From: an uncultured delta proteobacterium
GTDB taxonomy: Bacteria > Desulfobacterota > Binatia > Binatales > Binataceae
Length of the DNA: 64,000 nucleotides
Assembly: GCA_963808235.1 (NCBI GenBank)
Contig: CAWEEQ010000004.1
Location: 2,816,001 to 2,880,000, forward strand
Reading direction: 5' to 3'
Position numbers and translations under genes: made by a program
The notes under the pieces: model-generated
The model's database searches: none
Told to the model about the DNA's origin: nothing
The model's input: only the letters and a program-made list of their open reading frames with translations
Shown here: one piece after another, positions 3,852 to 10,641 of the stretch
How positions within the stretch are numbered: position 1 is the stretch's first letter
Layout of the letters: every line of letters begins with the position of its first letter

Positions 3852-4283
3852 TCAGCGAACCCGCCACGGGGCCGGCAACTCCCCACTCTCGAGCCAGCGC
3901 GCATAGTCGGCAAGAATCTCCGCATGATCGAACGCCAGCGGAGCGGGCGGAGTGCGAGGATCGAACAGCGCCACTGTCTTGGCATCGTCCGCAGCGCGCG
4001 GCGTCCCCGACGCGCGCGCAACATACACAACCGTAATCGTGTGTCCCCGAGGATCCCGATCAGGCCGCGAATAGACGCCGAGCATCGCGCGAATTTCCAC
4101 CGCCAGCGAAATCTCCTCGCGCGCCTCGCGAACCGCCGCATCCTCGACCGTCTCGCCAAAATCGACGAAGCCACCGGGAATCGCCCACCCATGCGGAAAA
4201 TTCTTACGCTCGATCAAAACGATCTTATCGCCAATCTCCGCGATAATGTCGGCGGCGATCGGCGGGCATTGCGGACGCGGCAT
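3852..4283 (-). CDS. NUDIX hydrolase
   Basis: Nudix box [35 protein letters not shown]. Confidence 0.93.
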
Positions 4284-4345
4284 GTTCCTAATCTAACACG
4301 CGCGCACGCCGCACGCCGACAAGCGCGGAAAGAAATGGAGACGAA
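4275..4345 (-). repeat. Promoter/start repeat copy 1 (native NUDIX promoter, TGtTAGATT-aggaac-ATG)
   Basis: acgcggcatgttcctaatctaacacgc..cacgccgc.cgccgacaagcgcg recurs at 7405 and 10571. Confidence 0.9.
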
Positions 4346-4347
4346 TT

Positions 4348-4383
4348 GATCAATCGCGGAAAACGCGAGCGCCTCCCGTTTTG
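4348..4383. repeat. Left direct repeat of island
   Basis: gatcaatcgcggaaaacgcgagcgcctcccgttttg versus gatcaagcgcggagaacgcgagcgcctcccttttg at 13837-13871 (2 substitutions, 1 gap). Confidence 0.8.
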
Positions 4384-4576
4384 TCCAGCCCAGCGCTTGG
4401 GACACCGCTGCTGCCGGAAGGCGCGGCGATGGCGTTGCCCGGCGGGCCGCCGCCGGAACCGTTACTGCTGGTCTGGCCCTGCTCAGACAATGAGCGCACG
4501 AGCTGCGGACTGTAGAATTGGCCGCCGCCGCTATAGTACAGCGGCCCCGGATCGCCAGGTTCCTTCTCGCGGCCCT
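4384..4576 (-). pseudogene. Rhs-core remnant (cassette E)
   Basis: GREKEPGDPGPLYYSGGGQFYSPQLVRSLSEQGQTSSNGSGGGP is near-identical to the other cassettes. Truncated on both sides. Confidence 0.85.
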
Positions 4577-4673
4577 CGCGCATCGCAAACAATAGTCGGC
4601 ACAACAAGAACAAGGGCGACTGGTTAGCTCGATGAGCCGGTGATGGTATCCGCACCGACTGCCCGCGCCGCCA

Positions 4674-4943
4674 TCAGCGGCGACGACTTGGCCGCCGCCC
4701 AAAAGGATTCCGCAAGCGCCATCCGACCGCCGCCAAGGCTCGAAATATCCACCAGGCCAGGCGGAGGTGCCCTTGCCCGGGATGGTTGCTCACGATTTCA
4801 AGCGATTTTTCAATACACTCATCGCATATCGTGCTTCCTCCATCCGCACGAATGATCACCACGACATCCTGTTCTGAGTTCCCGCAGAAGCTACACCGCA
4901 TTTGAGAAGTGGAGCCATCTGGTTCGGTCGATGTTTGCTTCAT
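4674..4943 (-). CDS. Small protein with ClpX-type C4 zinc-finger, in the immunity position of cassette D
   Basis: CSFCGNSEQDVVVIIRADGGSTICDECI; starts 4 nt after the cassette D stop. Confidence 0.65.
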   Translation of the reverse strand: MKQTSTEPDGSTSQMRCSFCGNSEQDVVVIIRADGGSTICDECIEKSLEIVSNHPGQGHLRLAWWIFRALAAVGWRLRNPFGRRPSRRR

Positions 4944-4947
4944 CACT

Positions 4948-7648: not shown

Positions 7649-8065
7649 TTACTGGCCAGCGCTTGGGCTATGTCGGCGTCCATGGCGCGCGATGCCCACC
7701 ATTCCAAGGGTTACGGCCATCGGAAAGGCGATGCCACTTACCACGAAGAGATAGAGTGGCATCATCGCACCAGGCCACAGCGCTAACACGATCGAGCCGA
7801 GCCCTGCGCTGGCACAGCCAACAACCGGGCCAAGTACCACTGCTAACCGAGCTCTCGGTGAGAGATCGGGCCTTAGCACAAGCGCCCTGATAGACAAAGC
7901 AGTCATCCCGAACAGGCCAAATCCCAGAGCGAGCTGCAGGAACTTCGGCAGAGCAGCATGGGCTCCAGCGACATGCCACGCGAAGAGTGACAATACCAAA
8001 ACGAAAGAGGCTGCCACGAACAGTAGGAGGAGCCAAGACTTCGGTGAATGCTTAACGGGGCTCAT
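7649..8065 (-). CDS. Putative immunity protein (about 4 TM) of cassette B
   Basis: Hydrophobic ORF; its ATG overlaps the corrected cassette B stop (TGATG at 8067-8063). Confidence 0.7.
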   Translation of the reverse strand: MSPVKHSPKSWLLLLFVAASFVLVLSLFAWHVAGAHAALPKFLQLALGFGLFGMTALSIRALVLRPDLSPRARLAVVLGPVVGCASAGLGSIVLALWPGAMMPLYLFVVSGIAFPMAVTLGMVGIARHGRRHSPSAGQ

Positions 8066-8901
8066 CACTTGCAGCTCTGGTAATAGTTATAGAAGCACCC
8101 GGTTTCGCCGATCTTTTTGGGAATCTCCATCGCGAGTGCACCGGTACAAGCCAAGGGGCCGAACTCCTCAGAACCAAATTCGCACGCATAGATAGCCACG
8201 CTTTCCGGAATGTCTGGAGCTGCTTCCAGGACCCCGAGGCATTTCCGGAGTTCTCCGCGCGCCTGTTGGCACTTCTGACTTTTCTGCTGTTGTGGATTCC
8301 CAGGGGTTTCCTTCCGCAGGGGAGGCGTGCCGCAGGGTTGAGGGTCTCCGCAGAATTCTGGCTTCCCCGATGGCGCTCCGTCGGAATCAGACCCTCGGAG
8401 ACGCCTATGATTTTCGGATACAGCGGGTGGCGGCGGGAGAGCAACTGGCGCGGAGTTTCAGACGAACTGCCGCCGCCGAAAATATCCTCGAAAAAGTTCA
8501 CCACAAAATCGACTGCGCCACCGATGATCGCCAGCGGCGGTGCAAGGGCTATCGCCACCTCGGGGTTGCCAAGGGCGAGTCCGAGCACCCAGGCACCCGC
8601 GTATATATCCGTACCCACTTGAAGCGCCTGCTGCGTGTCATTATAGACGCTCTGCGGCGATAAACCGCCGCTCGAACCCGATGGAGGTGAGATCGCCCTT
8701 CCCGACGGGCCGCCGCCGGAACCGTTACTGCTGGTCTGGCCCTGCTCCGACAATGAGCGCACGAGCTGCGGACTGTAGAATTGGCCGCCGCCGCTATAGT
8801 ACAGCGGCCCCGGATCGCTAGTTTCCTTCTCGCGGCCCTGGTACAGGAACGGCCAACTGTTCGAGCTGCCGTTCACCGTAGGATTCCCGGCTGGATCATA
8901 A
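8065..8901 (-). pseudogene. Orphan Rhs core + Cys-rich tip (cassette B), truncated, 1-nt deletion at ~8376
   Basis: YDPAGNPTVNG... begins just after the stop of the previous gene. The corrected tip ends ...GETGCFYNYYQSCK*. Confidence 0.8.
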
Positions 8902-8904
8902 GCC

Positions 8905-9300
8905 CTAAGCTCTGAGCGCCCTATATGCCGACCCTCCGGAGTAGCACATAAGCGCAACCGCTGGGCCAAATAGAGAAAATAACACAAAGTAGCTGGCTCG
9001 CTCCATGGTCACGAAAACCAGCAGAGCCAGCAATGCCTGCCAAATCGTTAAGCATTGCACCTGTCTTCTCACCGCCATGGAGCGCCTGATCTGCTCCGGA
9101 AAATCGGTCCAACTGATGGCGAACAGAAGTACCGCGTTCGAAAACAGGACGACGTCCCAGCGAAGCACGGGGGTAGCGGCTTGAAGCCAGTTCGACCCCA
9201 GAACAAAGATGCAAGCTATTACTCCAACTATGCTGGCTAGGAGGAACGCCGAAAGGCCGACGGCAAGCAGCTTTTCTGACTTAGGACTGAGTGTTAACAT
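8905..9300 (-). CDS. Putative immunity protein (about 4 TM) of cassette A
   Basis: MLTLSPKSEKLLAVG..., hydrophobic, starts 10 nt after the cassette A stop. Confidence 0.7.
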   Translation of the reverse strand: MLTLSPKSEKLLAVGLSAFLLASIVGVIACIFVLGSNWLQAATPVLRWDVVLFSNAVLLFAISWTDFPEQIRRSMAVRRQVQCLTIWQALLALLVFVTMERASYFVLFSLFGPAVALMCYSGGSAYRALRA

Positions 9301-9310
9301 CTTTGGTCTT

Positions 9311-10579
9311 CTACTGCCCTTGGTTTGGAACAGGACCCCTCGCACCGGGACCCAGCCAAGAATTGGGAAACGCCGCACCATAGCAGAGCCCTATCCCGCC
9401 GAAGTAAGAGCCGCAGAGAACCGCGGCCTCTACACAGGCAGGGATGGCACCGCCTGCGCACCCGACGCCCGTGATGACGCACCCACCCGTCAACTCCGGG
9501 TTGAACGCGGTAAACACTCCACCGCAAGCAAAGAAAAGCCCCAGTCCCGTCTGCGGCTGCGCCGAAGGAGGCGCCTTGCGGTATTCTGGTTGCGAGTTGT
9601 CCTTGCCAAGCGGGCGCTTGCGGCAGGGCTGCGGGTCTCCGCAGAATTCCGGCTTCCCCGAGGGCGCTTCGTCCGGAATCAGATCCTCGGAGACGCCTAT
9701 GATTTTCGGATACAGCGGGTGGCGGCGGGAGAGCAACTGGCGCGGAGTTTCAGACGAACTGCCGCCAAAGATATCCTCGAAAAAGTTCACCAGAAAATCG
9801 ATTGCGCCACCGATAAGAGCCAGCGGCGCCACGAAGGGTGGTGCCTCTGGTCCCAGAAAGTATGCGAGCAGGCCGGCGCCCAGATATATATCCGTACCCA
9901 CTTGAAGCGCCTGCTGCGTGTCATTGTAAACGCTCTGCGGAGATAAGCCGCCACTCGAACCCGATGGAGGCGAGATCGCCCTTCCCGACGGGCCGCCGCC
10001 GGAACCGTTACTGCTGGTCTGACCCTGCTCCGACAATGAGCGCACGAGCTGCGGATTGTAGAATTGGCCGCCGCCACTATAGTATAGCGGGGCCGGATCG
10101 CTAGGTTCCTTCTCGAGGCCCTGGTACAGGAACGGCCAAGTGTTCCCCGTGGGGTTCTCGGTCGGATTCCCAGACGGATCATAGGTGTAGGTCGTCGTCG
10201 GTGAAGACCCGGTCGAGGCCGCATTCACCAGCGCGATAGTCGATCCTGATGCATCGATCAGCGGCACCCAGGTGGTCATGGTTCCCCCAATCGTATTGGA
10301 GCCGGCCAGCGCCCCGCCGCCGGGGAGATTCAAAAAATCCCAGGAATTTCCTGAACTGTCCCACCATCCCAGAACCGAACCGCCATCGTGCAGAAAATAC
10401 TGGATATCGAAACCTGTCGCTTCCTCCCGCCGTCCCAGCCCATCGTATACCTCAGACGGTATGCCGGCGTTAGCCAACTGGTTACGCGCAGTCCAGGTAA
10501 ACGACAATCCGCTCGCCGGATCATACGTGAGGCTGCTTTCCTTGTTGGTCATCGAGGATACCCCGTTCCAACGCGGCAT
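9311..10579 (-). CDS. Truncated Rhs/YD-repeat protein with Cys-rich hydrophobic C-terminal tip (cassette A, intact frame)
   Basis: FTWTARNQL, YDGLGRR, DASGSTIAL, YTYDPSG and FLYQG Rhs motifs. Starts at the duplicated ATG. Confidence 0.85.
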   Translation of the reverse strand: MPRWNGVSSMTNKESSLTYDPASGLSFTWTARNQLANAGIPSEVYDGLGRREEATGFDIQYFLHDGGSVLGWWDSSGNSWDFLNLPGGGALAGSNTIGGTMTTWVPLIDASGSTIALVNAASTGSSPTTTYTYDPSGNPTENPTGNTWPFLYQGLEKEPSDPAPLYYSGGGQFYNPQLVRSLSEQGQTSSNGSGGGPSGRAISPPSGSSGGLSPQSVYNDTQQALQVGTDIYLGAGLLAYFLGPEAPPFVAPLALIGGAIDFLVNFFEDIFGGSSSETPRQLLSRRHPLYPKIIGVSEDLIPDEAPSGKPEFCGDPQPCRKRPLGKDNSQPEYRKAPPSAQPQTGLGLFFACGGVFTAFNPELTGGCVITGVGCAGGAIPACVEAAVLCGSYFGGIGLCYGAAFPNSWLGPGARGPVPNQGQ

Positions 10580-10641
10580 GTTCCTAATCTAACACGCACA
10601 CACGCCGCGCGCCGACAAGCGCGGAAAGTTGCGTGACGAAT
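10571..10641 (-). repeat. Promoter/start repeat copy 3
   Basis: acgcggcatgttcctaatctaacacgcacacacgccgcgcgccgacaagcgcggaaag; supplies the ATG at 10579. Confidence 0.9.

Follow-up and report, generated by a model that had tools for sequence, protein, structure and literature searches.

The stretch of DNA examined here (the window, 64,000 nucleotides) belongs to an uncultured bacterium of the genus Candidatus Binatus and corresponds to C4:2816001-2880000 of its own genome, an assembly of 4 contigs and 4.59 Mb with 93% completeness; positions given without a contig prefix are those of the window. Close to its left end, the start region of a gene for a NUDIX hydrolase is found three times in direct orientation, once at the gene itself and twice further along, where its ATG is in frame with headless C-terminal fragments of Rhs proteins. 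The fragments form an array with variable tips and small genes, and together with other modules they lie between the NUDIX gene and a gene for a zinc-type alcohol dehydrogenase (ADH), its direct neighbour in related genomes.

The NUDIX start and its copies

The NUDIX gene and the three copies of its 5' region (P1-P3) are located as follows.
3852-4283, minus strand: NUDIX hydrolase gene (Pfam NUDIX, E 1.9e-21), native owner of the repeated start, with its open reading frame (ORF) beginning at ATG 4283
4277-4345, minus strand: P1, the native NUDIX 5' region, with TGnTAGATT at 4298-4290, a 6-nt spacer and ATG at 4283-4281
7405-7473, minus strand: P2, a copy of the NUDIX 5' region, with the -10 box at 7423-7418 and ATG at 7411-7409
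10573-10641, minus strand: P3, a copy of the NUDIX 5' region, with the -10 box at 10591-10586 and ATG at 10579-10577

According to a repeat finder, P2 is 90% and P3 80% identical to P1, each over 69 nt, and pairwise BLASTN gave 89.9% over 69 nt for P1/P2, 94.8% over 58 nt for P1/P3 and 98.0% over 51 nt for P2/P3. The copies differ from one another by 1-14 substitutions, each has unique flanks, and on the minus strand every one closes with ...GCGTGTTAGATTAGGAACATGCCGC. When all 4 contigs (4,586,535 nt) were searched with blastn-short, each copy matched only the three repeat sites (E 1e-18 to 1e-33), and the best further matches in the genome were at most 20 nt long, with E values of at least 0.013. 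Thus, the repeat is not a dispersed repetitive extragenic palindromic (REP) element, an identity that was considered and ruled out because the matches are confined to three sites, and the locus specificity on which the initial annotation depended holds.

That annotation had described three copies of one sequence of about 55-70 bp; the repeat finder and BLASTN agree on the three copies, but not on a single upstream end. P3 is secure over 56-58 nt only (10571-10628), and its first 13 nt resemble the native sequence upstream of TM275, a membrane protein gene described below, in two relatives (G008 and G006) about as much as they resemble P1 and P2. The homology of P2 probably reaches some 20-27 nt past 7473, to about 7500, and beyond about 27 nt the P2 upstream flank has no significant similarity. 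P1 lacks 18-19 nt found in L051, a 1.2-kb metagenome contig of a relative (about 88% identical) that reads terminator tail, 18-19 nt, repeat and NUDIX, and the P2 flank matches those L051 nucleotides at 13 of 20 anchored positions. Given the deletion in P1, the flank of P2 and the ambiguous start of P3, the copies have no one common upstream end, which rules out the identical boundaries of a discrete mobile unit or att site.

Comparison with 20 genomes of the same genus, one of them (G018) unpublished, bears out the claim of a native NUDIX promoter and ATG in the repeat. NUDIX orthologues with 73-90% amino acid (aa) identity adjoin ADH divergently in 20/20 of these relatives, and the two starts are 29-30 nt apart in 12 of them; in another 7 the distance is 84-130 nt, and in the last one 678 nt. 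In the window it is 10,119 nt. At its NUDIX-proximal end, the repeat can be aligned with the sequence upstream of NUDIX in relatives, and the repeat word GACAAGCGCG is part of their NUDIX-ADH intergenic sequence GATTGACAAGCGCG, which is also kept in the window, with the remaining ADH upstream sequence, at 14340-14401. Moreover, TGnTAnnnT, a spacer of 6 nt (7 in one) and ATG stand at the NUDIX start in 20/20 relatives, and all three copies read TGTTAGATT-AGGAAC-ATG; such a -10 box, ending 6-7 nt from the ATG with no Shine-Dalgarno sequence, is the arrangement of a leaderless start.

The same spacing stands out across the genome: TAnnnT ends 6 nt before the first start codon in 89 cases, versus 26-64 at 19 other spacings, and with TG added the count is 19 at spacing 6, versus 1-9 elsewhere. 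Among long ORFs, TAnnnT at spacing 6 is about twice as frequent as at other spacings, and about four times with TG. These counts suggest that the Binatus genome holds some dozens of leaderless genes. From the arrangement in all 20 relatives and the genome-wide peak at spacing 6, NUDIX is most likely leaderless and the repeat most likely holds its whole expression signal. Pattern scans for the -10/ATG word gave a single hit in species genomes, at the NUDIX start of G019, and a single hit in metagenome contigs, in L051.

Rhs cassettes in a mosaic island

In the order of reading, the array consists of five Rhs pieces (F1-F5) and four small genes.
9311-10579, minus strand: F1, 422-aa Rhs/YD C-terminal fragment on the P3 ATG (MPRWNG...), with an intact Gly/Cys-rich tip
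8905-9381, minus strand: I1, membrane protein, candidate immunity gene, likely ATG at 9300, 10 nt past the F1 stop
8052-8987, minus strand: F2, headless Rhs fragment with frameshifted tip, homology from 8900
7649-8068, minus strand: I2, 139-aa membrane protein, candidate immunity gene, with ATG 8065 overlapping the out-of-frame F2 tip stop
6746-7411, minus strand: F3, 221-aa Rhs fragment on the P2 ATG (MPPATTYTYD...), with its tip out of frame
6077-6565, minus strand: I3, 162-aa polytopic membrane protein by sequence, candidate immunity gene, no family above cut-off
4948-6015, minus strand: F4, headless Rhs/YD C-terminal fragment, frame open through its own tip
4674-4946, minus strand: 90-aa ClpX-type zinc-finger protein (zf-C4_ClpX, E 8.9e-12), candidate immunity partner of F4
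4350-4655, minus strand: F5, short remnant of an Rhs core end and last element of the array, homology block 4438-4576

The five pieces share a common block of about 590 nt with 86-95% identity. Their Rhs nature is seen through longer relatives: over 338 aa, F1 shares 55% identity with the C-terminal portion of an 871-aa frame in one relative (G061), which matches RHS_repeat (E 3.1e-22) and YD_repeat_2x (E 1.3e-23), and a 1294-aa homologue in the same genome as the window is a YD-repeat protein with a signal peptide and the same C-terminal layout (RHS_repeat, E 8e-15). By themselves, F1 and F4 reach only 17.1-17.4 bits with Pfam RHS_repeat (cut-off 22), F2 and F3 have no score, and NCBIfam has no match for the fragments or for I3. 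The canonical end of an RHS-associated core is a DPxGL-type motif; at the equivalent position all five fragments carry a conserved YYSGGGQFYSPQLVRSLSE block, and no NCBIfam family matched. As had been proposed, the ATGs of P2 and P3 are in frame with headless Rhs fragments, and both ORFs align with Rhs/YD proteins.

Past a conserved linker (...GVSE.LIP) the tips diverge, and the small genes begin 5-10 nt past the tip stop or overlap it, so that each variable tip has its own small gene. Three of these genes encode polytopic membrane proteins and one the ClpX-type zinc-finger protein, whose ATG at 4943 lies 5 nt past the F4 stop. A C4 zinc finger of this type is an unusual fold for an immunity protein. 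On this layout, the tips are candidate toxins and the small genes candidate immunity genes. F2 and F3 share a 1-nt deletion (CCG-ACG versus CCGGAC in F1) that throws their tips out of frame; because the start of I2 overlaps the stop of the out-of-frame F2 tip, that frame is the real one. The out-of-frame F3 tip stops 180 nt ahead of I3.

Neither the island nor the window contains a longer Rhs frame, and the array does not lie downstream of a full-length rhs gene; the full-length homologues of this genome are at C4:923861-927745 and C4:422179-425961. For the proteins scanned with Pfam, it is confirmed that recombinase, secretion gene, VgrG/PAAR and full-length Rhs are absent, as had been stated. 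The family is large: among 691 candidates, 81 related proteins of 121-387 aa were found at E of at most 1e-10; in the 17 sequences examined among them the starts are scattered, and none begins like F3. In the protein collection, the 90%-identity cluster of F3 has 1 member on 1 contig.

The array is only one part of the DNA between NUDIX and ADH, which has the following further components.
10716-11543, plus strand: TM275, membrane protein, divergent neighbour of Rhs arrays in relatives, as seen from their loci
11546-13639, minus strand: TPR697, membrane-anchored TPR protein and conserved partner of TM275, by profile and relatives' loci
13910-14251, minus strand: p165, small secreted protein that begins MKLKRK, preceded by GGAGAAGGAGA; as listed, its ORF extends to 14407
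13815-13895, minus strand: p165 terminator hairpin, tail and about 17 nt, upstream part of the putative first copy of unit R (see below)
4345-4381, minus strand: 37 nt repeated from the p165 terminator (3' half and tail), assigned to unit R, 89% identical to 13834-13870
14300-14401, plus strand: remainder of the ancestral NUDIX-ADH intergenic region on the ADH side, ADH promoter part intact, NUDIX-side part decayed
14402-15424, plus strand: ADH, divergent direct neighbour of NUDIX in relatives

Since NUDIX and ADH are direct divergent neighbours in all 20 relatives, the segment 4284-14401 is an island of about 10.1 kb, apparently a mosaic, inside their divergent promoter region, and the empty site that the initial annotation had asked for is thus present in each of them. 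TPR697, TM275 and p165 each have one copy in this genome, and of 46 further genomes in the genus, 22 have TM275. Rhs fragments stand beside it in G061, G015, G006, G048 and G049, and the order in G061 and G015 is TPR697, divergent TM275 and Rhs fragments, at a locus flanked by an orthologue of C4:3293703-3294749. TPR697 is 57% (G061) and 84% (G015) identical in aa sequence, and TM275 86% and 81%, respectively. The homologue of p165 in G058 (82% identical) is at yet another locus, and there the terminator hairpin is kept with compensating changes. A second membrane-anchored TPR protein (743 aa, 20657-22885, minus strand) is encoded 7 kb from the island and is 32% identical to TPR697.

The correspondence with G061 is collinear. 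Window positions 11565 to 10642 match 6396-7313 of the G061 locus (L045) with 89.6% identity, and the match resumes from 10578 to 10011 at L045 8884-9445; P3 stands in place of L045 7314-8883, that is, 1570 nt with the native Rhs upstream sequence and about 458 codons. In six relatives the conserved sequence upstream of TM275 stops at the equivalent of 10642-10649, regardless of what comes next, and both the present array and that of G061 close with the same short Rhs remnant. Because it is collinear with a TPR697-TM275-Rhs module kept at another locus in relatives, the array probably came as a block, into which the promoter copies would have been introduced.

The repeat also seems to belong to a longer duplicated unit. 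The sequence at 4345-4381, directly upstream of P1, recurs in the genome only at 13834-13870, and in a direct comparison of sequences the stretch past 13834 goes on matching L051. These matches point to a unit R of terminator tail, promoter and ATG in three copies, the first of which would have been split by the TPR697-TM275 segment 13814-10642.

Origin and probable effect of the copies

We consider it probable, with clear reserve, that the three copies are junction duplications left by microhomology-mediated recombination of a relocated orphan array with the adjacent NUDIX start. The island would have been built of modules kept elsewhere in relatives, namely p165 with its terminator, the TPR697/TM275 pair and the Rhs array. 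By illegitimate microhomology-mediated recombination or template switching, sequence from upstream of NUDIX (about 56 to 96 nt) would have been copied into two sites of the array, the copied segment running through the ATG and 4-6 more bases, and at least once this would have come with a deletion, P3 having taken the place of about 1.57 kb with the native Rhs upstream sequence and the 5' part of the frame. Donor segments that stand in donor order with skips, repeated copying of the target and a short identity at each joint fit such recombination or template switching. At the F3 joint, ATGCCGCCGGCGACGACC, compared with AAGCCGCCGGCGACGA at the same place in the G061 orphan, shows a 5-7 nt overlap with NUDIX ATGCCGC, and the F1 joint reads ATGCCGCGT/TGG, compared with GTCGAGT/TGG in G061. 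A tandem duplication with its joint behind the ATG, followed by loss of the upstream copy, fits equally well, and the second unit may be due to an unequal crossover between copies. It is plausible that selection acted as a filter, since within a promoter region of 29-130 nt only insertions that duplicate the junction would leave both neighbours expressed; the argument would also apply to the insertion at C2:29362-31463, described below.

What the copies would do follows from their composition. P2 and P3 retain the extended -10 box, spacer and ATG unchanged, with at least 45 nt of upstream sequence, and if NUDIX is leaderless each copy is a complete start for both transcription and translation. 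Leaderless transcription may thus begin at P2 and P3, and as both joints are in frame, translation of F1 and F3 from leaderless mRNAs is expected. The mRNA from 10579 would run through F1, the coupled I1, F2 and I2, that from 7411 through F3, I3, F4 and the gene for the zinc-finger protein, so the cassettes have probably been given transcription and translation starts. F1 and F3 lack the N-terminal shell and a signal peptide, and their products would be undeliverable to other cells. By analogy with the internal rhs promoters of Salmonella discussed below, the likely gain is expression of the immunity genes or a toxin-antitoxin-like hold. A stronger version, in which the leaderless promoter with its ATG acts as a portable expression head, with a translatable mRNA resulting from any joint a few bases past the ATG, and was twice fixed by selection on silent orphan cassettes, making them an expressed immunity or toxin-antitoxin-like island, we regard as unlikely.

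Several observations weigh against the recombination scenario or its proposed consequences. That the three copies are identical over 25 nt at the -10 box and ATG gives no evidence of selection, since the 94-95% identity of the neighbouring Rhs blocks would lead one to expect as much. The joints of P2 and P3 fall within 2 nt of each other, for which microhomology accounts only partly, and the 1570-nt replacement is defined by one relative, G061. A benefit of the P2 fusion seems doubtful, given the frameshifted F3 tip that stops 180 nt before I3. A sigma-70 consensus scan, which demands a -35 hexamer, called no promoter in any copy, and none of the RNA runs listed contains the stretch. In addition, the wider pattern has lost some of its initial strength: flanking repeats occur at 5 of 7 other Rhs loci, versus 26 of 300 random 12-kb windows, but two of the five pairs belong to dispersed repeats and another is part of Rhs coding sequence. 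For a repeat of 143 nt in G061, a third copy is present elsewhere. None of the independent contigs listed bridges P1 or P2.

The first alternative is a single insertion with target duplication, followed by unequal homologous crossover between promoter copies, which would have given tandem units of promoter, Rhs fragment, small gene, second Rhs fragment and small gene. The unit lengths of 3128 and 3168 nt agree with it, as do the best pairs, F3 with F1 (94.2% over 586 nt) and F4 with F2 (94.7% over 528 nt), in an a-b-a-b order, and the P3 joint would become the P2 joint if 378 nt between two GCCGC words were deleted in frame. However, the four tips differ from one another, as do the four small genes, both flanks of P2 are unlike those of P1 and P3, and the a-b-a-b order has a 1 in 3 chance. 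The units would have diverged later by tip/immunity replacement and small deletions; this reading is possible, if rather unlikely.

Serial capture, the reading of the initial annotation, holds that tip/immunity blocks were added singly at the NUDIX start, with the promoter duplicated each time, to give an integrase-free expressed library. It would account for three direct copies that are each followed by two Rhs fragments and small genes, for the two in-frame joints, for a site that is empty in 20/20 relatives and for block insertions with target duplication elsewhere in this genome. On the other hand, the upstream TM275, F1 and the terminal remnant follow the G061 order, with only 1570 nt replaced by P3, and separate captures would not rebuild that order. 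Moreover, a recombinase, an attC-like fold and a common upstream end are all lacking, F2 and F3 have frameshifts, and the protein collection holds no identical or near-identical F3 elsewhere. In detail, Pfam found no recombinase, IntI included, in 15 proteins of 1-15.4 kb and, beyond 15 kb, in 42 of the 43 ORFs that do not overlap and are 110 aa or longer, the exception being the window-end ORF 63626-64000. In single-strand folding, the three copies (z-scores -0.01, -3.35 and -0.65) share no structure that could be an attC-type site. There is no tRNA in 1-20000, no Rfam match in 3500-15000 and no inverted repeat of at least 25 nt in 1-16000, and the duplications are not of one fixed length, as target duplications would be, but measure 38, 51 and about 56 to 96 nt. 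Judged from these sequence features, the island appears to be neither an integron nor a transposon or site-specific genomic island. With the collinear module, the differing ends, the missing fold and the frameshifted F2 and F3, integron-like repeated capture at the NUDIX 5' end is not upheld, and we rate it as quite improbable; P2 and P3 look like scars of sloppy recombination rather than a new capture system of integron type.

Finally, an assembly artefact, in which extra copies come from mis-joined repeats in a metagenome-assembled genome, is hardly credible: the 4 contigs at 93% completeness, Rhs blocks that are repeats of about 590 nt with 86-95% identity and the missing bridge at P1 and P2 would allow for it, but the substitutions between copies and their unique flanks argue against duplication by the assembler, long open frames are kept in both fusions, and three Logan contigs from different runs cross the P3 joint without differences. 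The Logan short-read contigs come from four soil runs of one study, possibly the source sample, and cover parts of the island at a depth of 2-5; the three (10489-10773, 10397-10648 and 10398-10631) are from 3 of the 4 runs, and the first spans P3 on both sides. The spanning sequence that had been asked for across 4.2-10.7 kb thus exists for the P3 joint but, among the contigs listed, not for P1 and P2.

Comparison with known systems and other Rhs loci

Orphan toxin/immunity cassettes are usually viewed as a silent reserve that can be used only once it has recombined into a main gene. Arrays of such orphans that lack start signals were already known (PMC3150448), and in Salmonella, internal promoters of rhs yield a truncated toxin and its immunity protein inside the cell, in the manner of a toxin-antitoxin pair (PMC7043789). 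Orphan Rhs-CT/CdiA-CT arrays with immunity genes, which are linked to C-terminal displacement, resemble the present one in the headless core stretch, the variable tip, the small translationally coupled gene and the presence of several units in a row. Unlike them, the array here has no full-length rhs upstream and has moved between two housekeeping genes, and two of its fragments carry a foreign promoter with an ATG. The Salmonella case shares with this locus a C-terminal Rhs protein that is made without delivery, next to its immunity gene, in the cell; here such expression would follow from the sequence of the starts. In Salmonella the promoters lie within the rhs frame and the start is CTG, whereas here they are copies of the leaderless promoter of a neighbour.

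The likeness to integron arrays consists in promoterless cassettes in one orientation with a promoter sequence at their head; unlike in integrons, there is no IntI, attI/attC or shared hairpin, the promoter is repeated and the cassettes were not added singly. Integrase-free junction-duplication scars, such as the one in this genome at C2:29324/31460, have in common with P1-P3 that a short piece of the target junction is duplicated at either side of the insert and that the flanking genes are intact. They differ in that the duplicate here is a complete leaderless expression signal that ends in frame within the insert, twice. What is new is a relocated array without its main gene, into which a neighbour's leaderless promoter and ATG have been copied twice in frame, together with the leaderless start as a self-contained unit. 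In the literature examined, copies of a neighbour's promoter in orphan Rhs arrays are not described, and no literature was found on orphan Rhs with microhomology or on Rhs work in the phylum Binatota.

P2 and P3 probably switch on the neighbouring immunity genes, and the start signal in frame on two orphans makes their expression, as an immunity or addiction module, directly testable. Short junction duplications let blocks of genes enter compact promoter or operon junctions while the neighbours stay unbroken, and the promoter and ATG of a leaderless gene form a single expression unit that cannot be divided and is easily copied. Were the idea of a portable expression head true, it would be an integrase-free functional counterpart of the integron promoter, and a toxin/immunity store without delivery would have been turned into an expressed island.

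Parts of the array recur elsewhere. At L048 (G005:C1:78600-80400), the F1 tip, I1 and the beginning of F2 are found together with 81% nucleotide identity over 970 nt, as a headless insert between two large genes of another species and without a visible start signal; the I1 homologue beside the F1-like tip there has 92% aa identity. In L068 (G048:C3), a homologue of I2 that is 64% identical and has an internal frameshift directly follows the TM275 upstream sequence, and Rhs fragments come next. Loose ends of Logan contigs at 4626, 4665, 7208 and 7411, where contigs at least 95% identical run on into other sequence, indicate that co-occurring relatives hold F3-like and F4/zinc-finger cassettes in other contexts. 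One of these contigs has ...AGGAGGCGT directly before ATGCCGCC, and the sequence at the 7411 loose end was not found in the genome of the window.

A similar signature is seen at other Rhs loci of this genome. At C2:29324-31497 (L053), a 2.1-kb block (C2:29362-31463) with a 374-aa Rhs fragment and a 177-aa gene, in opposite orientation, sits in the overlapping stop of a histidine kinase gene and start of a response regulator gene. It is flanked by a unique 38-nt duplication of this junction (C2:29324/31460), and the kinase and regulator genes are adjacent in 11/11 relatives. Downstream of katG, a block of Rhs fragments is bounded by the duplicated half, unique in the genome, of a perfect terminator hairpin (C2:84053-84103/89416-89464); one of its joints falls inside the hairpin, which is also the case at the p165 terminator of the window. 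A general rule of long target duplications at Rhs blocks holds only in part, with dispersed and coding repeats among the pairs. Two REP-like families of about 40-77 nt, one at C4:920582-920658 and about 20 further sites and the other at C2:72502-72577 and 7 further sites, had at first both resembled target duplications around Rhs orphans.

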